Shown here piece by piece: positions 1-63,579 of a stretch of 64,000 nucleotides of DNA. Each line of letters opens with the position of its first letter. The stretch's first letter is position 1. Source of the DNA: a bacterium (GTDB taxonomy: Bacteria; Patescibacteriota; Andersenbacteria; UBA10190; CAIZMI01). The translations under genes and the position numbers were made by a program. The DNA is taken from NCBI GenBank assembly GCA_030647555.1, contig JAUSJG010000013.1, forward strand, positions 12,086 to 76,085. The letters are read 5' to 3'. The notes beneath the pieces were generated by a model. The model saw only the letters and a program-made list of their open reading frames with translations. It did not search any database and was not told where the DNA came from.

Positions 1-154
1 CATCTTATGTTCACTCCATCCTCAACTACAACCACTTCTCAATCAAAAATCTTTCAACGTACGTTTAGTACGTCTCAAGATTTTGTTCAATCAAAGCGGC
101 CATATTTGAGGCGTATTGAACAGAATATGGAGCGTTTATTTATTACCAAGCCCT
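1..154. mobile_element. MITE-like element, copy A (5' part cut by window edge); ~85% identical to copies at 30135-30315 and (reverse) 60882-61061
   Basis: Direct alignment of 1-154 with 30161-30315; shared right end gcgtttatt(t/a)attaccaagccct. Confidence 0.6.
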
Positions 155-156
155 AA

Positions 157-2707: not shown

Positions 2708-3100
2708 ATGATCAGCGAACAAGAACCTGTTGATTTCGGCGAAATCTTAAGAATCGCGAGAAAGAGATTGAGCAAAAACGCTGCACAGATGGCTGATGAA
2801 CTAGGTGTGAAGGCTTCGACGGTCTCGCGTTGGGAAACGAATAAGTGCATATTCCCCGTAGAGAAATTCGAAGCAGTTTCCCAAGCTTACGTCCTAGACG
2901 CCACTGAAAAAGGCATAATCTCTCAGTTCTTACGAAACCCAACAAACAAACTCCTTTCTAAAAGCCATCCAAAAGTCGCGGGTTCAGAAAGGATGTCATT
3001 GGGCGCCAAAATATTTATCTGCTGGGTTGAATTACCAAAAGCAGAAAGGCAAAAATGGCTCAAAGTCATGCAGGCTTATGAGGCATCAGGCGTCGAATAA
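2708..3100 (+). CDS. XRE-family helix-turn-helix transcriptional regulator
   Basis: [37 protein letters not shown]_3 pattern; divergent from uvrB. Confidence 0.65.
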
Positions 3101-3223
3101 CCAAACCCCAAAGGCGCTGTCCTCATTGCGGATCCAGAGTTGTTTTCTGTTGAGGATGGGGTTTGGGAGCCCGAAAAGGAAGCAGTTCTTGTTTGGAAAA
3201 AGTAGAAATTAGATTGAGACCCC

Positions 3224-3252
3224 CCCGTGCGGTTTTCCGCCCGGGTTTTTTT
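3224..3252 (+). terminator. Intrinsic terminator hairpin cccgtgcggttttccgcccggg + T7; same sequence recurs at 5673-5702
   Basis: GC stem plus T-run seen directly; exact duplicate downstream of 5082-5669 gene. Confidence 0.45.
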
Positions 3253-3331: not shown

Positions 3332-3373
3332 TCCACTCCAGGAGCGGAGCAAGGTTGCTCCGCTCCTGGAGTG
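3332..3373. repeat. Palindromic element family 1 (GGAGCAA type): ccactccaggagcggagcaa-gg-ttgctccgctcctggagtgg
   Basis: 20-bp perfect inverted arms; related copies at 46971-47012 and 61133-61207. Confidence 0.7.
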
Positions 3374-3405
3374 GAACTGGTCGTTCTGAAAATAAAGTTA
3401 GCGAA

Positions 3406-3444
3406 ATCAGTGACCGACCCCGGCGTGCGGGGACGGTCCCTGAT
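3406..3444. repeat. Palindromic element family 2 (GACCGTCCC type): atcagtgaccgaccccggcgtgcggggacggtccctgat
   Basis: Identical copy at 7389-7427; related copies 21361-21398, 38601-38639, 48678-48715, 59907-59944. Confidence 0.75.
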
Positions 3445-3550
3445 TTGTCGGATGCACCATTGACTTTTGTCTGTTTTGGGGGTAGGTTGGACGTAAGAAG
3501 CAACCGAAAACTTCCTGAAAGGGTTGTGGCCGAAAGGTCTAGGTTGCTTT

Positions 3551-5051: not shown

Positions 5052-5081
5052 TTTTTTTCTCATTCGAAGAGAGGTTCACAG

Positions 5082-5669
5082 ATGTGTGACGAAAATAATG
5101 AACTCGTTGATCTTGTCCGTTCGATTGCTTCTCCGACCTTGTCACACGAGGCGATCGTGGCTTTGCGTGAATCGGGTATGCTCGATCAACTTTTATTAGC
5201 AGCCAAAAGGAGTCCAGGACGGTTGTCTTTACCACTCGTTCAGCATGAGTTAAGGACGGTGCTGGGGTTTCGTCCAGTAATTGACTGTGACGCGATGTTG
5301 GAATTTGAGGGTTACGAATATCGTAAGGATGATCAGCCCTTGAACAGAATTCGCCACAAGATTTTTTGGGACCCGTTCGCGTTTAGCCGTTACGTTTTTT
5401 CCAGCGTGAAGCTTTGCGACAAGGTGGCCGAAATTCAGGATCTGGTACCGGCGCATGTGTTGCGATTTCTAGTTGATAATCCCGACCAGATGCCGGAGGA
5501 GTATGCATTCTCTGATTTGTTTTTCTGGACGCCGTTGCGAAGTCTGCTGGAAGGGGAACTGTATGTACCCGGTTTGCAACAAGGGAAGTTGTGCTTCCAA
5601 AAGATTGTGGACGCGCAAGGTGCGGTCTTGGTGCCTGCTCGAGCCAGCGATTTGATAGTGGCGTATTAG
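5082..5669 (+). CDS. Hypothetical protein (start at MCDENNELV, RBS gaagagagg)
   Basis: ORF with RBS; followed by terminator repeat; no recognisable domain. Confidence 0.5.
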   Translation: MCDENNELVDLVRSIASPTLSHEAIVALRESGMLDQLLLAAKRSPGRLSLPLVQHELRTVLGFRPVIDCDAMLEFEGYEYRKDDQPLNRIRHKIFWDPFAFSRYVFSSVKLCDKVAEIQDLVPAHVLRFLVDNPDQMPEEYAFSDLFFWTPLRSLLEGELYVPGLQQGKLCFQKIVDAQGAVLVPARASDLIVAY

Positions 5670-6644: not shown

Positions 6645-7274
6645 GTGATGGGACATGCGAACGCGGGAACAGATTTTACGATTGATCAAGTCATGGCTAT
6701 TCGGGAGATGGAGAGAAAGTTAGCGCGACAAGGATTTCGCGGTGCTCGAAAAGAGGTTCAAGATGCTTTCGAAGTGTTGCATTACCGTATTAAGGCGTTG
6801 AAAAAACACCGCTTGGTGGATTGTTCTAAGGGGGCGTCTATCCCTGATGGATGTTTGATTCTTGAAGAAGATCAGTTACCGGGAAGAAAGAAAGACGAGA
6901 TGATCCTGAGTGTTCGTTTTATGGAGCTTTGGATTCCGGAAGCCAGGATGCCGGGAATATACAGCAGAGCCGCATTGCTTGAGGAGCTTCAACAAAATGA
7001 ATCAGCGGTACTTCCGTTGAGCGTTCTCGATCACGATCTTCTTTGGCAGCACGGGATTTTCTACGGGCTCATTCCCGATCAAGGTAGCATCTTATTCTGG
7101 GGTACGATCTTTCGCGATGTAAATGGGATTCCAACAGTAAAAGGGTTGTCTCGAAAGCGAGCGGACATTTATCTGCGAGATTTCCCCATCGACAGCTTGC
7201 GGAGTACTGTGCCACAGCGCGAATATGTTGCGCTTTATGTCAACGCTCCAATGATTGACACCGGTGTCTGGTAA
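6645..7274 (+). CDS. Hypothetical protein, FWGT-motif family (paralog of 20738-21304)
   Basis: Shared segment LL..I...LIP....(I/V)(L/F)FWGT..R...G with 20738 protein; atypical codon usage. Confidence 0.5.
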   Translation: MMGHANAGTDFTIDQVMAIREMERKLARQGFRGARKEVQDAFEVLHYRIKALKKHRLVDCSKGASIPDGCLILEEDQLPGRKKDEMILSVRFMELWIPEARMPGIYSRAALLEELQQNESAVLPLSVLDHDLLWQHGIFYGLIPDQGSILFWGTIFRDVNGIPTVKGLSRKRADIYLRDFPIDSLRSTVPQREYVALYVNAPMIDTGVW

Positions 7275-7295
7275 ATAGCGTACGCAGTTTTTCTG

Positions 7296-7322
7296 CTCCA
7301 CGGAATCCCGTGGAGTTTTTTT
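7296..7322 (+). terminator. Intrinsic terminator ctccacggaatcccgtggag + T7
   Basis: Hairpin and T-run after stop. Confidence 0.55.
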
Positions 7323-7374
7323 GTTTTCGCGCGCTCGCGAAAACAATCCCCCATAGTCTTGGTGAAGGGGGATG
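7322..7374. repeat. Variable palindrome gttttcgcgcgctcgcgaaaac + CAT-element variant aatcccccatagtcttggtgaagggggatg
   Basis: Architecture shared with four other sites. Confidence 0.55.
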
Positions 7375-7388
7375 ATTTATTTTTTTAA

Positions 7389-7427
7389 ATCAGTGACCGA
7401 CCCCGGCGTGCGGGGACGGTCCCTGAT
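7389..7427. repeat. Palindromic element family 2, identical to 3406-3444
   Basis: Exact repeat. Confidence 0.75.
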
Positions 7428-7473
7428 TTGTTCGCGTATTCCTATTTCATCAATCATCATTCATAATCACCTT

Positions 7474-8055
7474 ATGATCGCCTCTCTCACTGGCACAATT
7501 GAACACGTATCAATGGACTCTGTTGTTATGCAGGTGAATGGGATTGGTTATCGTGTTTATACTCTGGCTTCGGTTTTGAGTGTGCTGAAGGTTGGCGAGA
7601 AAATTACGATGAAAACATATTTAAGTGTACGGGAAAATGATTTATCGCTTTATGGGTTTCAGAATCCGCGTGAGCTGGCTTTCTTTAAATTGCTTTTGCA
7701 GGCGCCGGGGATTGGGCCCAAGACCGCCTTGAACGTGATGGCAATTGCAACGGTCGATACTTTGATTCGCGCTGTCGCTTCCGGTGATGTGACGCTTCTG
7801 ACAAAAGTTTCCGGAATCGGCAAAAAAACGGCGGAAAGAATTGTGGTTGAATTAAAAACAAAACTGGAAAAAGAACATCCGGAACTTTCAGGGAAGGGGC
7901 CGAGTGTTCACTCGGATGTTATATCGGCGCTTTCAAGTTTGGGCTACAGCCCAATTCAGGCGCGGGAAGTGGTGCGGCAGTTGCCGGAAGAATTGAAGGA
8001 TGCGGAAGCGGGCATTAGAGCGGCGTTGAAGATTTTGGGAAGCAATAAGAAATGA
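7474..8055 (+). CDS. ruvA: Holliday junction branch migration complex subunit RuvA
   Basis: MIASLTGTIEHV... OB fold, HhH motifs (GIGPKTA, GIGKKTAERI), C-terminal domain. Confidence 0.9.
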   Translation: MIASLTGTIEHVSMDSVVMQVNGIGYRVYTLASVLSVLKVGEKITMKTYLSVRENDLSLYGFQNPRELAFFKLLLQAPGIGPKTALNVMAIATVDTLIRAVASGDVTLLTKVSGIGKKTAERIVVELKTKLEKEHPELSGKGPSVHSDVISALSSLGYSPIQAREVVRQLPEELKDAEAGIRAALKILGSNKK

Positions 8056-8198: not shown

Positions 8199-9284
8199 AT
8201 GAAGATTATTGAAGCTACAATTACAGACAGAGTAAATTGGGACACGTTTGTTTCAGGTCAACAAAGTGGTTCCTTCCTCCAGTCCTGGCTTTGGGGAGAT
8301 TTTCAAAACGCGGCGGATTTTCGAATAAAACGCTTAATTATTGTTTCGGTGGACGCAATTGGGGCAATTCATGAATTGCCCCTACATGACGAGCGTAATA
8401 ACTGGCTCGCGGTCTGTTTGTTGGTTGAACGGCGGTTGTCTTTTGGAAGAAGTTATTGGTATGCGCCATGGGGGCCGGTTACCAAAGACGGTCTTAATGA
8501 TAGTCAGTATAAACTAGTTTTGCAGGCGTTGCGCGCGCATTTCACAACAAACCGAAATGGTAGTGAAATGTTTTTGCGTATCGAACCGCATCTGCACACA
8601 AGCGAAGTTGGAAAAATTTTGTTGAGTGAGACGAAATTTAATCCGTTGGAAAAAAGTGTCCAACCGAAAGACACGTTGCTCTTAGATCTCACACAAAGCG
8701 AGGATGACTTGCTTCGGCAGATGCACTCCAAGACGCGCTACAACATTCGGATTGCGATCCGGCACGGTGTGACGGTTGCAGAAGAAACCAGCGTCGAGGG
8801 ATTAAAGGTTTTTTATGCAATGGCGCGCGAGATTGAAAGTAAGGGTGAGTTTCATTATCACAAAGAAAAATATTACATGAAAATGTTGGAAGTTTTAGGA
8901 AAAGAACGGGGAGTATCTATAATCGTAGCGCGACACGATGGTGAACCTTTGGCGGCCGGAATTTTTATTAAGTCCGGAAAAACTTTTACCTATGCGCACG
9001 GTGCGTCCTATAAAAAGAAGGCGCATGTGATGGCGCCGCATCTTTTACACTGGGAAGCGATTGTGCAGGCAAAGAAGCAGGGTTTTCAAAGTTATGATTT
9101 TTTCGGCATCGCGCCAAATGAAAATCCAAAACATTCATGGGCGGGGATTAGCAGGTTCAAGCGCGGATTTGGCGGGGCGGAGCAACACTACTTGGGTGCG
9201 TGGGACGCGGTGTTTGATGTAATAGGATATAGAGTGCTTAACAGTGCAAGGGCGCTTAAGAATATCTTTATGGTGAAGAAATAG
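8199..9284 (+). CDS. FemAB-family peptidoglycan interpeptide-bridge aminoacyltransferase
   Basis: FemAB-like pattern incl. HLLHWEAI...YDFFG; adjacent to murE. Confidence 0.7.
   Translation: MKIIEATITDRVNWDTFVSGQQSGSFLQSWLWGDFQNAADFRIKRLIIVSVDAIGAIHELPLHDERNNWLAVCLLVERRLSFGRSYWYAPWGPVTKDGLNDSQYKLVLQALRAHFTTNRNGSEMFLRIEPHLHTSEVGKILLSETKFNPLEKSVQPKDTLLLDLTQSEDDLLRQMHSKTRYNIRIAIRHGVTVAEETSVEGLKVFYAMAREIESKGEFHYHKEKYYMKMLEVLGKERGVSIIVARHDGEPLAAGIFIKSGKTFTYAHGASYKKKAHVMAPHLLHWEAIVQAKKQGFQSYDFFGIAPNENPKHSWAGISRFKRGFGGAEQHYLGAWDAVFDVIGYRVLNSARALKNIFMVKK
8361..8386. repeat. 26-bp palindromic repeat ggggcaattcatgaattgcccctac inside femAB ORF (encodes IGAIHELPLH); identical copy 63554-63579
   Basis: Exact 26-mer match at two loci. 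Confidence 0.7.
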
Positions 9285-11460: not shown

Positions 11461-11748
11461 ATGACTGACGAGATTAAAAACATATCGGCGCAGATAACGC
11501 CGTTGCTAAAAAATGCCGGGGTAATTCGGTCGGCGATTTTTGGTTCTCGCGCAACAGGGAATGTTTACAAGGATAGTGATTTGGATTTGTTGGTGGAATT
11601 TGGCTCAAAAAAAACTCTCTTGGATTTGTCTTCATTAAAAAGAAATTTGGAAGCGAAACTAAATATGTCGGTGGATTTGCTGACCTTTCGTTCGCTTAAT
11701 TCTCGATTGCGAAAAAAAGTCGAAAAAGAAGCGGTAGATATATTGTAA
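11461..11748 (+). CDS. Nucleotidyltransferase (MNT-type antitoxin)
   Basis: FGSRATGNVYKDSDLDLLV Pol-beta NTase motif. Confidence 0.75.
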   Translation: MTDEIKNISAQITPLLKNAGVIRSAIFGSRATGNVYKDSDLDLLVEFGSKKTLLDLSSLKRNLEAKLNMSVDLLTFRSLNSRLRKKVEKEAVDIL

Positions 11749-11749
11749 G

Positions 11750-12082
11750 ATGGCAAAGGATATACAAATTCTCCTTGGTTATATCTTGGACAGTGTTGAG
11801 GAATTGGAAAAACATGTGACTGATTTGAGTCACGAAGATTTTTTGCAATCAACACTTGTACAAGACGCAGTGATGCGTCGGTTGGAAATTATCGGCGAAG
11901 CGGTTAATAATCTTCCGGATAAATTAAAAGCAGATAATTCTGAAATTCCATGGCGCGATATAGCGGACATGCGCAATCTGCTGATTCACGAATATTTTGG
12001 CGTCGATATTGAGTTAGTCTGGGAAACCGTTCAAAAAGACATTCCACCGCTAAAGAAAAAGATTCAAGAACTGCAAAAATAG
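11750..12082 (+). CDS. HepT-like HEPN (DUF86) toxin
   Basis: RNLLIHEYFGVDIELVW Rx4HxY motif; 1-nt gap from MNT gene. Confidence 0.75.
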   Translation: MAKDIQILLGYILDSVEELEKHVTDLSHEDFLQSTLVQDAVMRRLEIIGEAVNNLPDKLKADNSEIPWRDIADMRNLLIHEYFGVDIELVWETVQKDIPPLKKKIQELQK

Positions 12083-21325: not shown

Positions 21326-21361
21326 ACGCCTCGTGCTTTGTTGCACGAGGCGTTTTTTTTA
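21326..21361 (+). terminator. Intrinsic terminator acgcctcgtgctttgttgcacgaggcgt + T9
   Basis: Hairpin and T-run. Confidence 0.6.
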
Positions 21362-21398
21362 TCTGGGACCGTCCCTGCAGTCAGGGTCGGTCACAGAT
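21361..21398. repeat. Palindromic element family 2 variant (atctgggaccgtccctgcagtcagggtcggtcacagat)
   Basis: Shares gaccgtccc/gggtcggtc arms. Confidence 0.55.
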
Positions 21399-21443
21399 AA
21401 AACATTAATTTGTGAACAGTAAATTTTGTGAAATTATTCATTG

Positions 21444-21472
21444 CCAAACGGCCTCTTTTTTGCTATAATTAC
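21444..21472 (+). promoter_or_regulatory. Promoter TTGCCA-17-TATAAT, 3 nt before ATG 21476 (leaderless-type)
   Basis: Hexamers read directly. Confidence 0.4.
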
Positions 21473-21475
21473 AAT

Positions 21476-21700
21476 ATGGAATTCAGACAATCGCTCTTTT
21501 GGGACACCGATCCCAAGAAAATTGATCCGCAAAAACACGCGCAATACATCATTGAGCGCGTGGCGGATTTTGGTAACGATAAAGAAGCGCGTTGGGTCTT
21601 GGATTTTTATGACAAACCGCTGCTTCAAAACATTATTTCTAAATCGCGCTGTTTAAGGCCGCGCACAAAAAAATTATGGACGCTTTTGGTCAACAGATAG
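21476..21700 (+). CDS. Small protein (MEFRQSLFWDTDPKKIDPQKH...), putative partner/antitoxin of the downstream AbiEii-family gene; overlaps it by 25 nt
   Basis: ORF directly after promoter; overlap suggests coupling. Confidence 0.4.
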   Translation: MEFRQSLFWDTDPKKIDPQKHAQYIIERVADFGNDKEARWVLDFYDKPLLQNIISKSRCLRPRTKKLWTLLVNR

Positions 21701-22347
21701 TTTGGCAATACCAAACACTGCCTGCTAACACAAAAAAAGCGTTAGATTTTTTGTCCGCGGAAAATTGGTTGGAAAAAACCGATTGGTATTTGGCAGGAGG
21801 CACAGCCTTGGCATTGCAGGCGGGGAATCGAAAATCTTTCGATTTAGATTTTTTTACTGTTCAAAAAGATTTTGATGGTAAAAAACTGCTTGCCAATTTT
21901 TTGGGTAATGATAATTGGAAGACAGATATTGAAGATACAAATACGATCTATGGGCAATTATTTGGGGCTAAAGTAAGTTTTATTGCTTACCCGTTTTTTA
22001 TCCCAAAGCAAAGGTTTATTCAACATGGTTCTGTGTGCGTGCTTGATAAGACTGACGTTGCGGTGATGAAAATAACGGCCATTTCTCAACGGGGCAGGAA
22101 GAGAGATTTTTTTGATTTATATTGGTGCGCGACAAACATCGAATCATTGGAAAACATCGTTAAACGGCTTAAAGAACAATATCCGTTTATTGCGCATAAT
22201 TATCACCACATTCTTAAAAGTCTAGTGTATTTTGACGATGCGGAAGGCGATCCCGAACCGGAGGTTTATTTTGATGCCACATGGGAAAAAGTTAAAGAAT
22301 ATTTTACAAAAGAAGTTCCGTCGATTGTCGACAAGATAGTGAATTAA
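21676..22347 (+). CDS. Nucleotidyltransferase AbiEii/AbiGii toxin-family protein
   Basis: WYLAGGTALALQAGNRKSFDLDFF motif typical of AbiEii NTases. Confidence 0.65.
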   Translation: MDAFGQQIVWQYQTLPANTKKALDFLSAENWLEKTDWYLAGGTALALQAGNRKSFDLDFFTVQKDFDGKKLLANFLGNDNWKTDIEDTNTIYGQLFGAKVSFIAYPFFIPKQRFIQHGSVCVLDKTDVAVMKITAISQRGRKRDFFDLYWCATNIESLENIVKRLKEQYPFIAHNYHHILKSLVYFDDAEGDPEPEVYFDATWEKVKEYFTKEVPSIVDKIVN

Positions 22348-22402
22348 AAGACGGTAAAAACGACACGCATCGGGTAGGCGTACACATTTTGTGTTCAAGA
22401 AA

Positions 22403-22587
22403 GTAACCGCTCACAGGTCGAGGAAAAGACGCGTCAGTTACCTTCAAGGTGGAGCACGCTTGCTCTTCCTTGAAGGTGGTATAGGTTAGCGTTGACGACG
22501 AACCAATACCACTTCCGATGAAGTGCCTCGGCACCACATCGGAAGTGGGAGCGATGATCTTTTTTTCCTTAACCTGTGAGCGGTTAC
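22403..22587. mobile_element. Structured TIR-bounded element, copy 1 (185 bp): 25-bp terminal inverted repeats gtaaccgctcacaggtcgaggaaaa / ttttccttaacctgtgagcggttac, two internal hairpins; flanked by caagaa direct repeat
   Basis: Direct comparison with 34615-34877 and 58081-58280. Confidence 0.7.
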
Positions 22588-22636
22588 CAAGAATAATCTG
22601 AACAAACAAGCCAAAATATGCTATAATCAGTCCACT

Positions 22637-28519: not shown

Positions 28520-28924
28520 TTACCGTGCATATGTGGAGATAATTTTTTTGTTCAGTTTTCTTTCCATTTCAAAAAAGGGGGCGTAGTTGTGATAAATCTT
28601 GAACGCATTTAGTTTAAATTTTAATAAATCCCGCCTGTCGCCATAGAGCAGGATTGGATTTTTGCTTACTTGGAACGACAAAAGCGGATTGGCTTTGTTT
28701 AAAATTGTTAGATCGACTTCTTTGTTGAAGATTGCGGAAAGTTCATTGATTAAATCAACATGTTCCTTAAAAAAAACGTCTTTCATGCCTAAAACGGCAA
28801 TGTCTAAATCGCTGTCCTTTCTTTGTTTTCCAGTCGCAAAAGAACCAAAAACAACCACCAATTTCAGTTGAAATTTTTTGGTGAGTTCAGTGATCTTCGT
28901 TTTTTGATCTTGGGTCGTTTCCAT
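28520..28924 (-). CDS. Nucleotidyltransferase (MNT-type), no adjacent HEPN partner
   Basis: FGSFATGKQRKDSDLDIAV motif. Confidence 0.65.
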   Translation of the reverse strand: METTQDQKTKITELTKKFQLKLVVVFGSFATGKQRKDSDLDIAVLGMKDVFFKEHVDLINELSAIFNKEVDLTILNKANPLLSFQVSKNPILLYGDRRDLLKFKLNAFKIYHNYAPFFEMERKLNKKIISTYAR

Positions 28925-30134: not shown

Positions 30135-30315
30135 AGGGCTTGATAATTAATAAACGCCTTATCTTATGTCCAATCCATCTCCAAATACAACCGCTTCTCA
30201 ATCAAAAATCTTTCAACGTATGTCAAATACGTCTCAAGATTTTGTTCAATCAAAGACAGTTGTCTTTGAAGCGCATTGAACATAATCTTAAAGCGTTTAT
30301 TAATTACCAAGCCCT
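30135..30315. mobile_element. MITE-like element copy B (181 bp) with 23-bp TIRs agggcttgataattaataaacgc / gcgtttattaattaccaagccct, inserted 4 nt after recA stop
   Basis: TIRs and ~85% identity to copy A (1-154) and reverse copy C (60882-61061). Confidence 0.7.
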
Positions 30316-30317
30316 AA

Positions 30318-30523
30318 TGGACAAACGGAGGACTTATAAAAAAATTGATCTGGAAGGGATTGATTTGCCCGGACCACGGCGCGAGACGGTGATGTTGCCT
30401 AAATCAAACACGTGGAAGTATTGGGTGGGTGCGTTTGTGTTGCTCGGATTTGTATCGGCGATGGTGCTGTTGAATTGGAACGCGGTGAGCCAAGCGGCGT
30501 TTGTGCGGGCATTGGTAAATTAG
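30318..30523 (+). CDS. Small hypothetical membrane protein (68 aa, one TM)
   Basis: ATG immediately after MITE end; hydrophobic segment. Confidence 0.3.
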
Positions 30524-33838: not shown

Positions 33839-34240
33839 TTGCGATATTATTGGCGCATGACGGAAGAAAATTTAGTGATTTATTGGCAAGAAGGGGCGCG
33901 AGAAGCGTGGAAAACCGCGGAGGCTTTAATGGCATCAAAACGTTATGTGCATACTCTTTTCTTTTGCCATTTAACACTAGAAAAGGCGTTAAAAGCTTGT
34001 TATGTCGATGTGAACAAGGTTCCCTCTCCACCAGTACATGATTTAAACTGGTTGGCGGAAGAGGCAAAAGTTAGTGTGAGTGATGATGATAAAAATATAC
34101 TTGCGGAAATATCAAAATTTAATATCGCCGGGCGTTATGAAGATTATAAATTGCGTTTGCACGAAGAGGCTACTTTTGAATACGTCAGTCGCTGGGTGGG
34201 TGAAACAAAAAGGCTGATGGATGTTTTATTGGCCGAATAA
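33839..34240 (+). CDS. HEPN domain protein (toxin component)
   Basis: HEPN-like helices with AGRYEDY R-x-H type motif region; overlaps MNT gene by 20 nt. Confidence 0.55.
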   Translation: MRYYWRMTEENLVIYWQEGAREAWKTAEALMASKRYVHTLFFCHLTLEKALKACYVDVNKVPSPPVHDLNWLAEEAKVSVSDDDKNILAEISKFNIAGRYEDYKLRLHEEATFEYVSRWVGETKRLMDVLLAE

Positions 34241-34583
34241 TATGATTATAGAAAATAAACCCGACCAAGAAGCGATTCAAATCGCACAAAGGTTTGGTGA
34301 TTTGGTAAAAAAACAGGGCGTTGATGTGCGAAAGGTCTTGTTGTTTGGATCTCGCGCGCGCGGTGGCTGGAAACCATGGAGCGATGTCGATATTTGCGTT
34401 ATCTCGCCTCAATTTGGCAAGAATGTTTCGGAAGAAATGGGCATGTTGTTGCGTCTTACCGTACAATTAAAATCGCCATTTCCCGTTGAGCCGATTCCTT
34501 TCGGCTTGGATGATCTTGAAGACAAATTCAGCACGCTTGCGAACGAAATTCGTAAGTATGGCGTTTCTGTAGAAATTAAATAA
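34221..34583 (+). CDS. Nucleotidyltransferase (MNT-type antitoxin)
   Basis: LFGSRARGGWKPWSDVDICV motif. Confidence 0.7.
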   Translation: MFYWPNNMIIENKPDQEAIQIAQRFGDLVKKQGVDVRKVLLFGSRARGGWKPWSDVDICVISPQFGKNVSEEMGMLLRLTVQLKSPFPVEPIPFGLDDLEDKFSTLANEIRKYGVSVEIK

Positions 34584-34614
34584 AAATCACGCTAATAAAA
34601 TTGATTATGTAAAG

Positions 34615-34877
34615 GTAACCGCTCACCGGTTAAGGAGAAATTTGAGTCGTCGCTCTCACTTCCGATGTGGTGCCGACCTGTCCCCCATAGCCTTGGCAAC
34701 GGGGGAGGCACTTCATCGGAAGTGGTGTGGGTTAGGGTTTGATAATCGTAGTAACGTTACGCGAACCATAACCACTTCCAAGGAAGCCATGCCTGTCCTC
34801 CGTAGCCTTGTGCGAAGGGGGAAATGGCCACCTTGGAAGTGATCACGACAGCAATCCATCGACCGGTGAGCGGTTAC
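34615..34877. mobile_element. Structured TIR-bounded element, copy 2 (263 bp), inverted relative to copies 1/3 and carrying two nested ~30-bp mini-palindromes in its hairpin loops
   Basis: TIRs gtaaccgctcaccggttaagg / ccggtgagcggttac; internal cacttccgatg...catcggaagtg hairpin. Confidence 0.65.
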
Positions 34878-34923
34878 CGCAAGCCACTTTGGCAAAAGCA
34901 TAATTTAAGCGTATAAAATCCAT

Positions 34924-45451: not shown

Positions 45452-46462
45452 TTATTGCTTTAAAAGTTTCTTAAATTCTTCCACCATGTCTACCGGGGAC
45501 GGGTTGATGCCTAATTGCAATGCAAGGTTGTATGAGAACCAGTCGCCAATGAGCAGTGTCGAAAAAACTTTCTCTGCTTTTGTGGCGCCTTTGATTTCTA
45601 CGAACGAAACCTTGATACCTTTTTCGGTGAGTAATCGCGCGGTGATTTCCATCCGCTTTAGAATCATTGGTTCGGTTGCTTGGTCACGCAAAATGACGAT
45701 ATGAAAACTGCCGTGAGGCAAAGTCCACCCACACATTTCGTTGTGGTTGAGTTCCGGGAAGAAATTCCAGAAGGCGGGTGTTTTGGCGTTTTCGTTGCAC
45801 TTGATTTTCCAGATGCGGGCTACTGACTTGTATTCATTGCTTGTGTAGATAATCGGTGTGACGGTTTTGAATTCCGGCGCCATTTGTTCGCCAAGGCGCC
45901 GCGCTTCCGCCATTGATTCCGTTAAGTTTTTTGAAACCGCTTCAATTCTTTCTTTTGCATTCGGAACAGCCAATCCTAAACGGGAAAGAAGTGCGGCAAA
46001 AATTCCTATGGTATAACCGGTCGCGCAACGTGGTTGAATGTTGGATGGTGTCGCTGGGATTTTTATAAATGGGATGCCATCGTTTATGCACCGTTTTTCC
46101 AAATCACCACCCGCCGCAATTCCCATCAGTGGCAAACCAAGTTCTTTTGCTTTTTCGTATGCTGAAAGCGTTTCTTCCGTATTGCCGGAAAAAGAACTGG
46201 CGATTACCAGAGTATTTTTGTTTACCCAATGCGGTAAGCCATATGCGCGATGAATATGAATTGATGTTGTAATTATTCCGCTGTCTCGCAGTAGTGCGGC
46301 AAACATCCAAGAGCCACCCATAGCGCACACTAAAACCTTTTCAATTTTCTCGGATGGTGTCCAGGTTGCCACTTGTTCAGCGGACTTTAAACCATCTAAA
46401 TATTGCTGGGGCGAGTCAAGAATGACCTGCTCCATGTTCTCTTTATCTAATGGGTTTGTCAT
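45452..46462 (-). CDS. Bifunctional phosphoglucose/phosphomannose isomerase (SIS domain)
   Basis: Archaeal-type PGI/PMI length and SIS-like CAMGGSW segment. Confidence 0.65.
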   Translation of the reverse strand: MTNPLDKENMEQVILDSPQQYLDGLKSAEQVATWTPSEKIEKVLVCAMGGSWMFAALLRDSGIITTSIHIHRAYGLPHWVNKNTLVIASSFSGNTEETLSAYEKAKELGLPLMGIAAGGDLEKRCINDGIPFIKIPATPSNIQPRCATGYTIGIFAALLSRLGLAVPNAKERIEAVSKNLTESMAEARRLGEQMAPEFKTVTPIIYTSNEYKSVARIWKIKCNENAKTPAFWNFFPELNHNEMCGWTLPHGSFHIVILRDQATEPMILKRMEITARLLTEKGIKVSFVEIKGATKAEKVFSTLLIGDWFSYNLALQLGINPSPVDMVEEFKKLLKQ

Positions 46463-46563
46463 AGTGTTTTTATTTTATGCCTGCTTGACAAAGTTGGCCA
46501 ATGGAATGATAATACAAAGTTCCTTTAAGTTTAATAACCAACCACATTTTCCGGAGAACAAAA

Positions 46564-46911
46564 ATGATTACCGCAGAATTACGCGAATGGCTTTGCGTTA
46601 GTGGTCACATTTTCTTTCACAAGGGGGCGATTCCTGATGCAGGCGCAGATATTTTGGAAATTGCTCAAGCGGCAGAAATCAATGCGCGGGTTTGTTGTCC
46701 GTGTGGTGCCGTTTCTATGATGGAGTTTCCTTTGGGTGAAATCTCTCGAGGTGACGTCTATCCGTTGGTTCGTTGTGAATCAGTGGTTGTGCCGGCTGGG
46801 CAGTATTTTGACGCCGAAGGAGAAAGGTTTGAGGAGGGTAGTACTGCCATACTGGAAGTGCGCAATATTGATACTTTGCTCAGTGCTTTGGAACTGAGCG
46901 AAGAGCCATAA
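46564..46911 (+). CDS. Hypothetical protein (Cys-containing: CCPCG, CES)
   Basis: ORF followed by terminator repeat. Confidence 0.4.
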   Translation: MITAELREWLCVSGHIFFHKGAIPDAGADILEIAQAAEINARVCCPCGAVSMMEFPLGEISRGDVYPLVRCESVVVPAGQYFDAEGERFEEGSTAILEVRNIDTLLSALELSEEP

Positions 46912-46922
46912 AACGTCACATC

Positions 46923-46949
46923 GCGACCACCTCGGCCGCGATTTTTTTA
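46923..46949 (+). terminator. Intrinsic terminator cgcgaccacctcggccgcg + T7 (near-duplicate at 48541-48567)
   Basis: Hairpin and T-run. Confidence 0.55.
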
Positions 46950-46970
46950 TTCGATAATGCGAACCTGTGT

Positions 46971-47012
46971 CCGATCACGGAACGGAGCAACCTTGCTCCG
47001 TTCCGTGATCGG
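46971..47012. repeat. Palindromic element family 1 (ccgatcacggaacggagcaa-cc-ttgctccgttccgtgatcgg); supplies the last ~12 codons and stop of the HepT gene
   Basis: Overlap of palindrome with 3' end of ORF 46975-47439. Confidence 0.65.
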
Positions 47013-47439
47013 TGTTGGTCGCCACTACCTTGCTGATTATTTGCACGAATTGTTCAAGATCTCCCAAATTGTTTTGGAGGTTTTCGTATACTATTTCCGG
47101 ATCAACGTCCAAATAATCGTGGACCAAGACATTGCGGAAACTTTTCGCTTTTGTCAGTTTGACAGCGAGTTCTTCGGACAAGATTCCCGAGTTTGCCAAT
47201 ATTTCAAATTCACTATTTTTTTCGCCGGGCTTTTGTAATTTGTTTTCAATTATTAAATAACGCGCGATATCAACAACGGTCTCCAGTCCTGTTTGGAACA
47301 GGCGTTCCACCGAAAGTTCGTTGCGTTCATCGGCAAAGTATTCGTTTTTCGACAGCGCTTGGTATTTTTTCAGCTTTTCCAGTGTTTCTTCCAGCGAGGA
47401 TAATTTATTGACGACTATTTCTTTAGTTATTTCAGTCAT
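46975..47439 (-). CDS. HepT-like HEPN (DUF86) toxin; C-terminus read through a palindromic element
   Basis: RNVLVHDYLDVDPEIVY Rx4HxY motif. Confidence 0.7.
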   Translation of the reverse strand: MTEITKEIVVNKLSSLEETLEKLKKYQALSKNEYFADERNELSVERLFQTGLETVVDIARYLIIENKLQKPGEKNSEFEILANSGILSEELAVKLTKAKSFRNVLVHDYLDVDPEIVYENLQNNLGDLEQFVQIISKVVATNTDHGTEQGCSVP

Positions 47440-47443
47440 TATA

Positions 47444-47890
47444 TTATGATGCGGTTAAATTGTTTAAGAAAGATTGGTTGTAAAGTTTCAGAAAATCTTT
47501 TTGGTCGTCGTATTCACGTAAAACCGCCATCTCGAATTTTACGCGTTCTCCATGTTCTTTTTCCGCTAGAACAATACCTTCACTGATCACCGCCATCCGC
47601 AAAGCGAGCGGGGCTTGGTTGAGTACGGAAATATCCAGCGCTTCTGTTGGTACATCAAAAATTTTTCCAATTATTTCGTGCGCGATTAAACGCGCGTCAA
47701 ACTGTGTCTGTTTTGAAGCATTGGGATCCAAAAATAAGGCGATGTCGATATCGCTTTCCTCATGTATGTCGCCGGAAACGGCGGAACCGAAAATATAGGC
47801 AAACAAAATCGGAAGGCCGGCCATTTCTTTTTCGGCCAGTTTGTTTAAATCGTCTGTGACAGTAATTTTCTTCGCGCCAAAGCGTTTCAT
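47444..47890 (-). CDS. Nucleotidyltransferase (MNT-type antitoxin)
   Basis: FGSAVSGDIHEESDIDIAL motif; 4-nt gap to HepT. Confidence 0.75.
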   Translation of the reverse strand: MKRFGAKKITVTDDLNKLAEKEMAGLPILFAYIFGSAVSGDIHEESDIDIALFLDPNASKQTQFDARLIAHEIIGKIFDVPTEALDISVLNQAPLALRMAVISEGIVLAEKEHGERVKFEMAVLREYDDQKDFLKLYNQSFLNNLTAS

Positions 47891-47918
47891 CAGTCAAATT
47901 TAGCTTATTAATGCGCTA

Positions 47919-47962
47919 TTGACAAGGAATCAAAAAGGGGGCAAAATAGGGTGTTCTTTAGC
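47919..47962 (+). promoter_or_regulatory. Promoter-leader module TTGACA-17-CAAAAT + agggtgttctttagc
   Basis: Same spacing and motif as other module copies. Confidence 0.4.
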
Positions 47963-48031
47963 TTACCCCACACCCCGTGCAAGCGTGCCGGAAGGGGACT
48001 AGTGGGAACACTTTTTCGGGAGGAATTTGAG

Positions 48032-48481
48032 ATGTTGGGTTCTTTGCAAACTTTATCTATTATTCTCTGTGTTGTTTCCATTCTTTGTTGTCCCTATCTA
48101 TTTCCTGTTTTGTGTCGGAATCTTCACTATTTTTGGAACAGGTGGAAGATGGGGCGACCGCGACCAATTGTTTACATGTGTCGTCCAAATGGCAGTAAAC
48201 GAATTGGATTCGTTCTGCGACGTGATTTCCAGAAGGCGGAGAAAAAATTCTGGAAAGAAAAGCGTCGTCAAGATGTGTGGCACGGAAAAGGATGGACTGG
48301 AGAATGGGACGCGGTAAGGATTCCTGTTGCACCGGTGTTCGTTTTTGATGCAGATTTGCCTACGTATAATTTGCTGAAGAAATACTGCTATTTGCAGGAG
48401 GCGGTGTTTCTTGTGCCGTTGGATAGCTATGGTCCCTCATTCGATGAGTGTTGGCTACACTTTCGGGGGGTCGTGAAATAG
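48032..48481 (+). CDS. Hypothetical protein (cassette-type; GWTGE motif)
   Basis: ORF between module and terminator+palindromes. Confidence 0.4.
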   Translation: MLGSLQTLSIILCVVSILCCPYLFPVLCRNLHYFWNRWKMGRPRPIVYMCRPNGSKRIGFVLRRDFQKAEKKFWKEKRRQDVWHGKGWTGEWDAVRIPVAPVFVFDADLPTYNLLKKYCYLQEAVFLVPLDSYGPSFDECWLHFRGVVK

Positions 48482-48540
48482 TTTTGTACGGAATCTGCCA
48501 GATGAGTAATTGGCACGTACTTCTTGAACGGTCTTAGCAT

Positions 48541-48770
48541 CGCGACCACCTCGGTCGCGATTTTTTTATTGCCCATCGGAATGGGCAATAATCCCCCTTA
48601 GCTCATCAGAGCGACGGGGGATGTTGCCTTGTTTTGTATCGATTATATCGATACAAACGGAAGATTGCTTACACGAAATCGGTGACCGACCCTGACCGCA
48701 GGGACGGTCCCCGATTAACTTCTCAAATCCTTATACTATATACCAAATACCATATACAAATCTAAATACA
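48541..48770. repeat. Repeat nest: terminator repeat (48541-48567), palindrome attgcccatcggaatgggcaat + CAT element (48569-48623), TGTATCGATTATATCGATACA (48635-48655), family-2 palindrome (48678-48715), gtatat-family fragment (48721-48770)
   Basis: Five different repeat families juxtaposed within 230 bp. Confidence 0.65.
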
Positions 48771-58080: not shown

Positions 58081-58280
58081 GTAATCGCTCACTGGTTAAG
58101 GAAAAAGCCGTCGCGGACACATCCAAGGTGGCCATTCATGGCTTCCTTGGATGTGGTGTAGGTTCGCGTAACGTCGTTACGACGCTACTAACCCACACCA
58201 CTTCCGATGAAGGCCAAGCGTGGCCCACATCGGAAGTGAGTGCGACGATTCAAATTTTTCCTCGACCTGTGAGCGGTTAC
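58081..58280. mobile_element. Structured TIR-bounded element, copy 3 (200 bp)
   Basis: TIRs gtaatcgctcactggttaaggaaaaa / tttttcctcgacctgtgagcggttac; internal hairpins with compensatory changes relative to copy 1. Confidence 0.7.
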
Positions 58281-58932
58281 ACCGGTCACGCTTGACAAAA
58301 ACTGCCAACGGGTGTATAATTACCCGTTATTGTTTTTTCAAACCCAAAGGAGATAACGAATGACGACGTAAAGAGCGCCTTGGCAGAATTGGCGCTAGAA
58401 CAGAAATACCCTCAAAAGTCGCAGTAGGCGATGAGGGAATTACTGCCCACAGCCTTGGAAAGTGGCTGAAACCGATGGAGTGGATGCGAGAAAACGTTTG
58501 GCTGGCGTCTAACCAATATTGGGACAGACATCCTCGTGTTCTACAAACCGGTAAAAATTTCCGCGGTGTCCGGGTGAGGGATCAACTTTGTGCCCATGAA
58601 ATCGATTACGACCTTCATGGGGCTAACGCAAAGGCCGATAAACTCGGGCTCAACTCTGAATCCCACTGGACAAAGGATTGTCCGCCGACAGGCAACCGTG
58701 ATCCGGCTTTGGTGGTAACTAAAGGGTAGCCGCAAGTAGTTTGTTTTGAGGAGGTCGCGATTCAACTCGCCACCTCCTCGCTTTCTCTTTGCTCGCAGTA
58801 TTGCGAGTAAAGATGAAGGTTGCTTTGGTTCGAATCTGTCGGGACGAAAGCATAATTGTTTTTTCAAAATCAGGGCGGCTGTCATGGGCCGCGAGACAGA
58901 TCCAACAAATTGTTCATGAAAGGACATCAACC

Positions 58933-59703
58933 ATGGCGAATCGTGACTTGTTCCGGGAAATCGTCGAGTCTTTGATTGTGCCGGCCAGCGAAGGTGTGGG
59001 TGACGCGGCTGAAAATCTGCTTCGGCTGTGCGCGAATGCGCGACCGGAAGCGGTTGAGGCGCTGGGCGACGTCGTTGAACTCGAAGTGCTGCTTTCGGCC
59101 ATCGAGGGCTACAAACAGCGCCAGGTTTTCGGAGGTTCAGGCGAAGCACAGGCTGAGATTCCGGAAGAGCTTGCCAGGGACGACGACGAGTTCATGAGCA
59201 CTCGGCAAGCGGCCCGGTTGTTGCGCGAAAAGGGACGGCCGAATTTCGCCACAACGGTTGGTCAACTGGAAGAACTGATCCACACCGACCAGGCGCGCGA
59301 GTTGGTTAATCTTCTGCACACGGTCGGTCAGATCCAAGAACTACAGATTCCCTGGGGACTGAAGTTCTCGAGCTACCTCAATGAGGCTGCGGAACGGATC
59401 GTTACCCGCTTGTTGCAACTTGTGGTCGAGTGGATGGAGGATGGCGCCAAACAGGACGCTTCCCGGCTGGCTCGCGATTTCGGTGAAGTCGGACTGGCGG
59501 CCGTCCAGCGGCTGATCAAGGCAGGTCGGCTCCCATTTCGGGTCGAAACCTATATGGGGCCGGATGCCCTGGATAGGGTTCGCTCGGCGGCCAATCAACC
59601 GATCGCGTTGCGCTGCGCTTTGCTCGGGGTGGAGTATCACGAGCGGAGTGTCAGTCGGTGCGAGAGCCCGCGTGCGGATCGTCGCGAGATGGCCCCCGCG
59701 TAG
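58933..59703 (+). CDS. Hypothetical protein, GC-rich (start MANRDLFREIV, RBS aaagga)
   Basis: ORF with RBS and terminator; atypical composition. Confidence 0.5.
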   Translation: MANRDLFREIVESLIVPASEGVGDAAENLLRLCANARPEAVEALGDVVELEVLLSAIEGYKQRQVFGGSGEAQAEIPEELARDDDEFMSTRQAARLLREKGRPNFATTVGQLEELIHTDQARELVNLLHTVGQIQELQIPWGLKFSSYLNEAAERIVTRLLQLVVEWMEDGAKQDASRLARDFGEVGLAAVQRLIKAGRLPFRVETYMGPDALDRVRSAANQPIALRCALLGVEYHERSVSRCESPRADRREMAPA

Positions 59704-59725
59704 GTTGGTCAAGTGGGGTAGAGTC

Positions 59726-59759
59726 ACGGGTGTTCACGCGAAGTGGCACCCGTTTTTTT
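59726..59759 (+). terminator. Intrinsic terminator cgggtgttcacgcgaagtggcacccg + T7
   Basis: Hairpin and T-run. Confidence 0.5.
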
Positions 59760-59780
59760 GTTCAAAAAATAGGGTACGCT

Positions 59781-60848
59781 ATGTGTGTGGAAACTAATAA
59801 TTTAAAAATCGAACAAGCGATTCTTGCCACGCTGGCCTACCACGATATTTTGAATATGCCGTTAACGGCGACCGAAATTTGGCGGTATTTGTTTAGAGAA
59901 CAACCAATCAGGGACCGACCCTGCATACAGGGACGGTCCCTGATTGGCGCATCGCTTACGGAAACAGAAAACATACTTAAGAATTTGTACAAATTTAATG
60001 AAATCGAATTTCATTCAGGCTACTACTATTTCCTCGAACGACAAGATTTAGTTGAAAAGCGTCTAAAAATGCACGCGTTGGCGCAAATTAAGTGGAAACG
60101 GTTGCGACGCATCGTTTGGTTTTTGCAGGCGATTCCTTTTTTGGAGATGGTGGCGGCGAGCGGCTCGCTTGCCCGCGAGTTTACGCATAAAGATAGTGAT
60201 CTGGATGTTTTGTTGGTTACAAAAGCGGGTAGGATTTGGACCGTGCGGTTTATTGTGACGGTAATTTTGGACTTGTTTCACTTGCGCCGGCGTCCGACAG
60301 GACCCACCCGTGACCTGGTTTGTTTGAATCATTATTTGGCACAGGACGGTTTAGCGCTTCCGTATCAAAGTTTATATACCGCTTTGGAGTATGCGCATAT
60401 CGTCCCACTCATTGGTGATAAAGTTTGTGCGGAATTTCGGGAAGCGAATAGAGAATGGATTGAGAAATATTTGGTACGTTTATTGCCCGATGAAATTGAT
60501 AATCTTAAACAAGTGCGAAAATCCTTTTTTCTTTCGGGGATTAAAAAAATAGTTGAGCTTTTGTTGTGCGGTATGGTTGGCGACGCACTAGAAGAGTGGT
60601 TAGGAAAAAGACAGAAAGAGAGAATTGTAAAAAACGAGGAAAATGCGACGGCGGGCGGTCGGATCGTGGCCAGTCCATTGCATTTGGAGTTTCATCCGCA
60701 CAGCAAAGAAGCGCCGTTGCTGAAAAAGTTTAATGAGAAAATGGCGGAAATGGGATTGGACGCGTTTGGTGGGCAAAAAGATTCCGGCTTGACAAAAAAT
60801 GCAAACGGATATATGATCCCGACATCCTCGGATGCCGACCCGCCGTAA
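59781..60848 (+). CDS. Nucleotidyltransferase-superfamily protein (Pol-beta-like GS...DSDLDVLLV) with N-terminal wHTH-like region; carries in-frame family-2 palindrome
   Basis: GSLAREFTHKDSDLDVLLV motif; start at MCVETNN. Confidence 0.5.
   Translation: MCVETNNLKIEQAILATLAYHDILNMPLTATEIWRYLFREQPIRDRPCIQGRSLIGASLTETENILKNLYKFNEIEFHSGYYYFLERQDLVEKRLKMHALAQIKWKRLRRIVWFLQAIPFLEMVAASGSLAREFTHKDSDLDVLLVTKAGRIWTVRFIVTVILDLFHLRRRPTGPTRDLVCLNHYLAQDGLALPYQSLYTALEYAHIVPLIGDKVCAEFREANREWIEKYLVRLLPDEIDNLKQVRKSFFLSGIKKIVELLLCGMVGDALEEWLGKRQKERIVKNEENATAGGRIVASPLHLEFHPHSKEAPLLKKFNEKMAEMGLDAFGGQKDSGLTKNANGYMIPTSSDADPP
59907..59944. repeat. Palindromic element family 2 inside ORF 59781-60848 (encodes QPIRDRPCIQGRSLIG)
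   Basis: atcagggaccgaccctgcatacagggacggtccctgat read directly in coding frame. Confidence 0.7.
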
Positions 60849-60881: not shown

Positions 60882-61061
60882 AGGGGACTGACGTAAATAA
60901 ACTGTCCATATTCTGTTCAATACGCTCTGAATACAAGTACTGCGACCGAACAAAATTTCGAAGCGTACTAGCAGTACGTTGAGAGATTTTGTGACCGAGC
61001 AGTGCTTGTAGTCAGAGATGTAGTGGACATAAGATGGATAGTTTATTTACGTCTGTCCCCT
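60882..61061. mobile_element. MITE-like element copy C (180 bp, reverse orientation) with 26-bp TIRs aggggactgacgtaaataaactgtcc / ggatagtttatttacgtctgtcccct
   Basis: Core aligns to reverse complement of copy A. Confidence 0.65.
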
Positions 61062-61132
61062 TAGGGCAAGTTTTTTGAGATCGTCGTAGGAAAGCGAACG
61101 GTCTGCTTTGCGTTTTCCTGTGACCTGCGTAC

Positions 61133-61207
61133 CGATCACGGAACGGAGCATCCCCCTTCGCACAAGGCTACGGCGGGACAAAGAGGTTGCTCCGTTCCGT
61201 GATCGGT
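61133..61207. repeat. Palindromic element family 1 with 36-bp insertion (tcccccttcgcacaaggctacggcgggacaaagagg) in its loop
   Basis: Arms identical to 46971-47012; insert also present (reverse) in 34794-34823. Confidence 0.65.
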
Positions 61208-63469: not shown

Positions 63470-63553
63470 GGTTTGCACCAAGTGCAAACCGCAACCCCGT
63501 ACTGAACATCAGTTCTAGTACGGGGTAAGCGCGAAACAAAGGGTTATACGTGT

Positions 63554-63579
63554 AGGGGCAATTCATGAATTGCCCCTAC
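63554..63579. repeat. Palindrome ggggcaattcatgaattgcccctac (within gtaggggcaattcatgaattgcccctac hairpin) after groEL; identical 26-mer inside femAB
   Basis: Exact match to 8361-8386. Confidence 0.7.

Follow-up and report, generated by a model that had tools for sequence, protein, structure and literature searches.

The REP/RAYT systems of Escherichia coli, Pseudomonas and Stenotrophomonas consist of short, mostly extragenic palindromes that lie behind gene ends, follow a family consensus and occur as several sequence variants per genome. In the arrangement known as the REPtron, a RAYT gene is flanked by REP copies (PMC6006769). The usual REP stem is imperfect and 10-13 bp long. Canonical REPs also carry a 5' GT[AG]G foot, while foot-less, atypical REPs occur in some RAYT subclasses (PMC6006769). 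The distance between a REP and the gene before it can matter: according to PMC12306157, which cites Liang, Rudd and Deutscher (2015), ribosomes in E. coli stall at REPs that lie within 15 nt of a stop codon, and expression of the upstream gene falls.

Other palindromic repeats enter coding sequences or accumulate between genes. Rickettsia palindromic elements (RPEs) of ~100-150 bp lie in frame inside genes and, as with other MITE and ERIC insertions in ORFs, are translated within a host protein whose fold is kept (PMC10969869). The BIMEs of E. coli and the BOX/RUP/SPRITE clusters of Streptococcus pneumoniae are mosaic intergenic hairpin arrays with nested elements (PMC10969869). The gene considered here belongs to the HEPN/MNT class of toxin-antitoxin pairs, in which AMPylation neutralises the RNase toxicity of the toxin. 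The defining motifs of the class are Rx4HxY in the toxin HepT and GSX10DXD in the nucleotidyltransferase antitoxin MntA (PMC7641770).

The locus lies in a 64,000-nucleotide stretch of a Patescibacteria (CPR) genome, hereafter the window, in whose coordinates all positions are given; contigs used for comparison carry L numbers. The host is assigned to this group from RecA, for which the best named relatives are Candidatus Andersenbacteria and Parcubacteria. The original prediction was that an inserted palindrome had replaced the native 3' end of a HepT gene, an event that might modulate the toxin or mark pseudogenisation of the pair. The repeat does encode the tail and the stop codon, and no homologue shares the extension; nothing native has been replaced, and the pair shows no sign of decay. 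The likely explanation is that a hairpin repeat of the REP/RAYT type stood behind the gene, and that loss of the HepT stop codon lets the ORF read into it; the toxin would then be attenuated rather than inactivated. The features of the locus and of the two other copies in the window are as follows.

3332-3375, no strand: variant copy of the repeat, with 21-nt perfect arms and the same GAGCAA-NN-TTGCTC centre and outer flanks as at 46971-47012
46564-46911, plus strand: convergent ORF115, 115 aa, a variable cassette (no Pfam match; only one homologue, in L020)
46919-46951, plus strand: canonical hairpin and T-run terminator of the convergent small ORF, a repeated 33-nt module (second copy at 48538-48570, 97% identical)
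46959-47022, no strand: full hairpin unit, with outer helix GCGA(A)CC / GGTCGC, internal loop and 20-bp helix (from folding and from flanks common to other copies)
46971-47012, no strand: repeat core, a perfect palindrome with 20-nt arms and the 2-nt centre CC (read from the sequence)
46975-46977, minus strand: TGA stop codon in use, inside the palindrome arm distal to the gene
46975-47439, minus strand: HepT ORF, 154 aa, C-terminus ...SKVVATNTDHGTEQGCSVP*, also read as ...ISKVVATNTDHGTEQGCSVP (ORF translation)
46978-47022, minus strand: 15-codon read-through extension ATNTDHGTEQGCSVP, encoded by the repeat (translation and homologue comparison)
47020-47022, minus strand: GCG (Ala140) at the ancestral stop-codon site (TAG in L002; TAA in L001, L003 and L004)
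47023-47439, minus strand: native HepT coding part, 139 codons to ...ISKVV, with Rx4HxY as R102..H107.Y109 (PF01934, homologues, 5YEP_B)
47444-47890, minus strand: MntA-type nucleotidyltransferase antitoxin, intact, with GSX10DXD as GSAVSGDIHEESDID (Pfam PF18765 and PF01909; motif read in the translation)
61131-61207, no strand: second copy with identical arms and a 33-nt hairpin module (61151-61183) exactly at the apex (sequence comparison)

A perfect palindrome within a longer repeat unit

The palindrome reads CCGATCACGGAACGGAGCAA-CC-TTGCTCCGTTCCGTGATCGG, with 20-nt arms that are 100% complementary, as originally described; by simple arithmetic, the number of such palindromes expected by chance in 64 kb is ~5e-7. 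Its overlap with the HepT ORF runs from within codon 143 to the stop codon, with codons 144-154 entirely inside, in agreement with the predicted overlap of about 12 codons, and the TGA is indeed supplied by the element. Four matches to its 19-nt arm are found in the window, against none in 100 shuffles; they are both arms at 46971-47012 and both arms at 61132-61206. The RNA form of the 42 nt folds at -37.7 kcal/mol, whichever strand is taken. The 42-mer recurs unchanged in L007, L008, L011, L016, L017 and L019.

This palindrome is the core of a unit of ~64 nt. The L017 copy reads CGACCAACA, then the 42-mer palindrome, then ACACAGGTTC, and L007 is 100% identical to the window across 46969-47017. 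Folding of the full unit at 46959-47022 gives -44.6 kcal/mol, compared with -24.4 kcal/mol for the L002 copy. Across the 11 copies compared, the main helix is 95.5% paired, and five pairs are altered on both sides. The central dinucleotide is CC or GG (for example, in L007 versus L008) with unchanged orientation of the flanks, a pattern that inversion or re-templating of the palindrome core would produce. The sequences before CCGATC in the copies are ...TGTGT, CGCGT or CTGCA, without GT[AG]G. The whole unit is a foldback, and no direct repeat flanks any copy.

Three copies are degenerate (L002, L013 and L014). The mismatched pairs in their arms read G.U on the strand that corresponds to the window's plus strand and A.C on the other, and the former strand folds better in each case (-27.2 versus -20.1 kcal/mol in L002, -32.8 versus -27.7 in L013, -18.0 versus -16.3 in L014), three copies being too few to separate RNA-level selection from mutation bias. 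On the G-rich strand, the flanks of the three window copies are oriented alike. A strand or orientation preference, considered on the basis of the G.U bias and the shared flank orientation, was dropped as the numbers are too small for such a claim.

Dispersal of the repeat

The related copies claimed earlier are both present, one with different arms and the same core (3332-3375) and one at 61131-61207. The former differs from 46971-47012 at five positions, each compensated in the opposite arm; the 64 kb hold two copies with identical arms and one variant. When one genome per species was scanned with the 19-nt arm, the only related metagenome-assembled genome (MAG) matched was CAIZMI01 bin-405, with at least six loci, four of them bearing perfect 42-mers. 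Six single-arm matches in unrelated phyla were discarded, this being about the number that chance gives for a 19-mer. Two further perfect copies with the same flanks, on two contigs, were found by scanning JGI metagenomes for the core. The copies are met in three settings, namely solo behind gene ends and terminators, within larger composite repeats, and with the 33-nt module at the apex (61131-61207).

Viral contigs, phage records and plasmid records contained no match to the palindrome and thus give no sign of a phage or plasmid origin. At the Rfam gathering score only a tRNA-Leu is reported, and the palindrome has no family match; permissive matches in the local region are generic miRNA-type hairpins far under threshold, although one sub-threshold hairpin match spans exactly 46959-47022.

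Stop-codon loss at the HepT gene

Comparison with relatives shows how the gene came to end in the repeat. L002, from another sample, reads GTA ATT TAG ACC AAC ACC AC-TCACGGAGCGGAACAAGTTTGCTCCGCTTCATGAG, followed by the spacer and the T-run terminator as in the window, whereas the window at the equivalent position reads GTA GTG GCG ACC AAC ACC GA-TCACGG... A diverged hairpin thus stands at the equivalent site in L002, directly 3' of the TAG stop, and the window hairpin is therefore no fresh insertion into the gene. The equivalent of codon 140 is TAA in L001, L003 and L004. Both L001 and L003 are without the hairpin and have the PGI gene within 20-73 nt of HepT; the L004 sequence ends ~20 nt beyond the stop and is uninformative on the presence of a hairpin.

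Where L002 has TAG, the window has GCG, so the ORF reads on for 15 codons into the repeat until it reaches an in-frame stop, the TGA of the far arm. On the sense strand TA has become GC, and these two bases pair with G46959 and C46960, which adds two G-C pairs and extends the outer helix to GCGA(A)CC/GGTCGC. The CGACC outer arm is also present in the L017 and 3332 copies (both CGACCA...). Both changes raise pairing, as would be the outcome of a template switch within the palindrome or of gene conversion by a copy that has the CGACC arm, and ordinary substitution is a third candidate for the origin of GCG; in one genome the three are inseparable. That genome is the only carrier of the extension, which may be a neutral, transient variant.

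The toxin-antitoxin pair

The tail has been added to a complete toxin. PF01934 matches HepT with 101.7 bits over residues 16-133, corresponding to profile positions 1-118 of 120, and the Rx4HxY motif, whose integrity had been noted from the start, reads RNVLVHDY (R102-NVLV-H107-D-Y109). Four relatives with 86-94% identity are all 139 aa long and end in ...ISKVV/I*, and more distant HepT relatives end 0-5 residues from this point. The comparison with homologues that the original prediction had named as its check is thus clear: four of four close relatives end 15 codons earlier. The structure of Shewanella oneidensis HepT (5YEP_B) aligns to residues 7-136, 2 short of its native 133-residue end. 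In an AlphaFold2 model, pLDDT stays at or above ~90 as far as the last helix (residues 114-141), beyond which residues 142-154 are coil with pLDDT 42-49. Because homologues end at 139 aa, 5YEP_B aligns as described and the modelled tail is coil, the 15 extra residues are best read as an appended tail, probably disordered, with no native residue lost. All 139 native codons are kept, which contradicts the proposed replacement of the native 3' end.

The proposed pseudogenisation is not supported either. Both the Rx4HxY motif of HepT and the GSX10DXD motif of MntA are intact, and the modelled fold is confident to about residue 141. Among these lineages, dN/dS of HepT is 0.04-0.12 at dS of 0.6-1.1, values that describe whole lineages rather than the terminal branch, and this comparison indicates that the gene is under strong purifying selection among them. 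Moreover, HepT with a C-terminal His tag remains toxic in S. oneidensis (PMC7641770). Given the low dN/dS, the intact antitoxin and the toxicity of the tagged protein, there is no sign of pseudogenisation. The pair resembles known HEPN/MNT systems in its PF01934 toxin with Rx4HxY and in the GSX10DXD-bearing MNT gene 4 nt upstream, and differs in the 15-residue C-terminal tail, which is absent from all relatives.

A mosaic locus and its neighbouring modules

The region between the PGI gene (45452-46462) and a small ORF at 47951-48481 is hypervariable, as seen when window positions 46460-48600 are compared with L001, L002, L003 and L020. Three architectures are found. The TA pair directly precedes PGI, without ORF115 or hairpin, in L001 and L003; the window and L002 have the TA pair, the hairpin, the terminator, a small convergent ORF and PGI, with small ORFs that are unrelated (L002 carries a 135-aa ORF in the ORF115 slot); and L020 has an ORF115 homologue with the terminator, and neither TA pair nor hairpin. 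ORF115 and the hairpin were considered as one mobile cassette, and this was rejected on the grounds that L020 has the terminator without the hairpin and L002 the hairpin with an unrelated ORF. The heptamer TAATGCG (46955-46961 and 47909-47915) was likewise rejected as a target-site duplication, being too short and absent at the L020 junction.

By sequence, the hairpin at 46920-46949 is a canonical terminator, and the terminator scan lists its repeat at 48539-48561. The terminator module, CATCGCGACCACCTCGGYCGCGATTTTTTTATT, is also present in L002 (~988-1019) and L020 (~456-485) and ends several unrelated small ORFs. Its two window copies (46919-46951 and 48538-48570) bracket the block formed by the hairpin, HepT, MntA and ORF176.

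The window is rich in other hairpin modules. A hairpin module of ~33 nt (TCCCCCTTCGCACAAGGCTACGGCGGGACAAAG and relatives) occupies the exact apex of two unrelated perfect palindromes (61151-61183; 34657-34724; 34773-34841), and both of these palindromes also occur 'empty', with a 2-nt centre, at 46971-47012 and 22509-22548. Such hairpin-in-hairpin nesting suggests apex-targeted insertion. Composite repeats of ~190-270 nt, with inverted ends GGTAACCGCTCACMGGT and varied internal hairpin modules, lie at 22402-22588 and 34614-34878, with a single end at 58265-58281; in the window, these composites follow TA genes (AbiEii at 21676-22347 and HEPN/NTase at 33839-34583). Others are found in L007 (~5056-5220) and L008 (~3061-3225), and in bin-405 the palindrome family described here is one of the internal modules. 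The likeness to BIMEs and BOX/RUP/SPRITE clusters (PMC10969869) lies in the mosaic, nested arrays; what differs here is the precise placement of the 33-nt module, at the apices of two perfect palindromes that are unrelated to each other, and the ~17-nt inverted ends that bound the composites.

Further families accompany them. A second hairpin family (GTGACCGACCC...GGGACGGTCCCTGATT) has at least five copies (3419-3445, 7388-7436, 21357-21402, 48684-48712 and 59904-59947) and is also present in L013 and L016, and a loop-less perfect palindrome, (GTA)GGGGCAATTCA|TGAATTGCCCC(TAC), is found at 8361-8382 and 63552-63579 as well as in L001 (765-797) and L007 (6773-6799). MITEs are IS-derived elements with terminal inverted repeats and a target-site duplication. 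A MITE-like repeat of ~190 nt, with ~35-nt terminal inverted repeats (AGGGCTTGGTAATAAATAAACGCTCCAT...), has at least three copies in the window (1-156, cut; 30135-30318; 60894-61049, minus strand) and occurs also in bin-405 (L016, 6802-6983). The window is also dense in nucleotidyltransferase/HEPN and AbiE-type TA genes (11461-12082, 21428-22347, 28520-28924, 33839-34583 and 59658-60848), most of which are followed by hairpin repeats.

Relation to REP/RAYT and other repeat systems

A gene resembling the transposase genes that accompany REPs is found next to this repeat in the related MAG. Contig L011 of bin-405 carries a RAYT-like gene (6755..7423, minus strand, 222 aa) with palindromes at 6700-6741 and 7467-7495: a perfect copy follows 13 nt after the stop codon, and a second begins 43 nt upstream of the start, where the contig end cuts it. 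The flanks facing the gene are inverted repeats. The protein matches Pfam Y1_Tnp with 31.2 bits (cut-off 23), and its only NCBIfam match, 'REP-associated tyrosine transposase', reaches 66.2 bits, under the equivalog cut-off of 80. Among PDB entries it matches E. coli TnpA_REP (4ER8) best, and the HUH (PTHFHLV) and tyrosine (RYIHLNPVSAGLV) motifs of the two align, the latter as YxxxNPV. This REPtron arrangement was found in the related MAG only; in the 64-kb window, neither tblastn nor a scan of 10 ORFs of unassigned function found a RAYT gene. Among relatives at the locus, no site was found to be empty or filled for the repeat unit alone. A literature search for RAYT or REPIN together with Patescibacteria (CPR) found no paper.

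Several traits by which REPs are known are present, namely a stem-loop (with a 20-bp perfect stem), multiple copies with a consensus, here in low number, and an extragenic location. Other copies lie between genes or within composite repeats, and it is only through loss of the stop codon that the window copy comes to overlap an ORF. As in REPtrons, the palindromes lie mostly outside genes and behind gene ends, share a consensus with several variants per genome, and flank one Y1/HUH gene with two copies (L011). The short, imperfect stem (about 14-40 nt) with a 5' GT[AG]G foot is not seen; the core is 42 nt long and perfect, with a 20-bp stem and a 2-nt centre. The low copy number, the Patescibacteria (CPR) host and the absence of a RAYT gene from the window likewise set this repeat apart from REPtrons.

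Other classes of hairpin fit less well. An intrinsic (Rho-independent) terminator is a GC-rich hairpin directly followed by a U-tract, and an integron attC site is an imperfect palindrome with RYYYAAC/GTTRRRY cores and extrahelical bases, located next to intI. On the HepT strand the sequence after the palindrome is ACACAGGUUCGC, and on the opposite strand it is UGUUGGUCGCC, neither being a U-tract, and the palindrome is unlisted in the terminator scan; a terminator was therefore rejected. An attC or integron origin was also rejected: the palindrome is perfect, its ends lack GTTRRRY, and no integrase was seen among the ORFs scanned. An in-frame insertion of the RPE kind (PMC10969869) does not apply either, the element lying 3' of a complete gene whose ORF ends inside it. 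The likeness to RPEs and to other MITE or ERIC insertions is that a palindromic repeat is translated in a host protein that keeps its fold; the difference is that a 3'-flanking repeat has here been captured through stop loss and adds a C-terminal tail only.

Together, these comparisons suggest a ~64-nt repeat of REP kind that is scattered through a small clade of Patescibacteria. Here it occupies the short gap that separates the convergent genes HepT and ORF115, immediately beyond the intrinsic terminator of ORF115. Its spread and maintenance may depend on a RAYT-type Y1/HUH transposase acting on single-stranded DNA hairpins, in the relatives and presumably here. The ancestral HepT would have ended ...ISKVV-stop, with the stop abutting the outer hairpin arm, as it still does in the L002 strain. 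The first two bases of the stop codon would then have changed (TAG to GCG), each change lengthening the outer helix, and translation would now run 15 codons through the hairpin to the TGA in the far arm. Termination inside a hairpin of -38 to -45 kcal/mol would be expected to lower HepT output. We thus infer that HepT translation is probably reduced, by analogy with E. coli REPs that stall ribosomes near stop codons, as the ribosome here must open the hairpin. The resemblance to REP-dependent translational down-regulation, as described in PMC12306157, is a stable hairpin near the stop, the L002 core starting ~10 nt after TAG with the outer helix abutting the stop; the window differs in that its stop lies inside the hairpin, where such an effect is predicted. 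Toxin activity may thus be modulated, as originally proposed.

A bolder reading, which we regard as rather doubtful, is that the repeat belongs to an unusual REP/RAYT-like system that combines perfect 20-bp palindromes with mirrored arm changes and CC/GG flips within unchanged flanks, precise insertion of a second small hairpin module at the apex, and overwriting of neighbouring stop codons by extension templated on the palindrome.

Competing explanations

The reading closest to the original prediction is unlikely; in it, insertion of a palindromic element within the gene cost HepT its native 3' end, and the TA pair is in decay. This reading accounts for a tail and stop encoded by the repeat and for an extension unique among homologues, and it gains from the fact that the 'CG' of GCG belongs to the outer arm of the unit in the L017 and 3332 copies. 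These points are outweighed by the retention of all 139 native codons, by a hairpin already behind TAG at the equivalent site in L002, by intact catalytic and antitoxin motifs, by the low dN/dS and by a fold predicted with confidence to residue 141. Still less can be said for an assembly or sequencing artefact at a repeated palindrome, which is very improbable. Both Logan contigs of the sample, L021 and L022, break within the palindrome, and the join across it consequently rests on the MAG assembler. Yet L022, from an independent assembly of the same sample (run SRR13727527), reads ...GTAGTG GCG ACCAACACCGATCACGGAACGGAGCAAGGTTGCTC and so shows GCG in place of a stop, with the frame continuing through the first arm and the loop, so that the missing stop is not peculiar to the MAG assembly; L021 covers the opposite side of the palindrome up to the arm, and the adjacency of HepT, hairpin and terminator is also assembled in L002, from another sample.

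Two further explanations concern what the hairpin does. In one, it has been selected chiefly for a role in RNA, whether in stabilising 3' ends, as a terminator or insulator that separates the convergent genes, or as an RNase III site, and read-through is a side effect; this is a tentative possibility and compatible with the explanation preferred here. Paired bases change in a compensatory manner, the degenerate L002, L013 and L014 copies fold better on one strand with G.U replacing A.C, and copies lie behind gene ends and terminators. The window and L002 differ at only 2 of 33 positions in the terminator and 1 of 12 in the spacer, where ~46% would be expected under neutrality from synonymous sites; of the 42 palindrome positions 11 differ, most of them in compensated pairs. 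This low non-coding divergence is compatible with selection acting on the hairpins, with homogenisation of the repeat copies, or with the two together. An RNA role is harder to reconcile with the lack of a U-tract on either strand and of a call in the terminator scan, with copies that lie within composite repeats and with the absence of an Rfam family match, and 42-mers that are identical between genomes with near-saturated synonymous sites fit recent spread or homogenisation better than conservation in place. An alternative that makes the hairpin a recombination or breakpoint site, through which small gene cassettes are exchanged in a hypervariable locus, has in its favour the three architectures among relatives (L001/L003; window/L002; L020). 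It seems improbable nonetheless: no integrase or recombinase was seen nearby, there is no attC-like GTTRRRY core, and palindrome-stimulated deletions or homologous exchange at any repeated module explain a pattern drawn from five related contigs equally well. Read-through into a REP/RAYT-type repeat after loss of the stop codon remains the explanation that we prefer.

Implications

The most unusual aspects of this locus are its perfect palindromy, the nesting at the apex and the CPR host; in other respects it is a minor and rather commonplace instance of a selfish element that alters where a gene ends. Its value lies partly in its resolution, as it offers a base-by-base example of an extragenic hairpin repeat that captures the end of a neighbouring gene through two substitutions that lengthen the hairpin. 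For annotation, it teaches that a C-terminus encoded by a repeat need not imply insertion into a gene or a pseudogene.

To our knowledge, selfish DNA of this type has been little studied in the streamlined genomes of Patescibacteria, and the locus suggests that this group harbours REP/RAYT-type repeats as well as many kinds of nested hairpin module. Were the more unusual system with its three features real, ultra-small genomes would possess a mechanism, based on hairpins of single-stranded DNA, for reshaping the ends of genes and adjusting how much product toxin genes yield. More simply, if termination within the hairpin lowers HepT synthesis, loss of a stop codon next to such a repeat would be a simple route to an altered toxin:antitoxin ratio.
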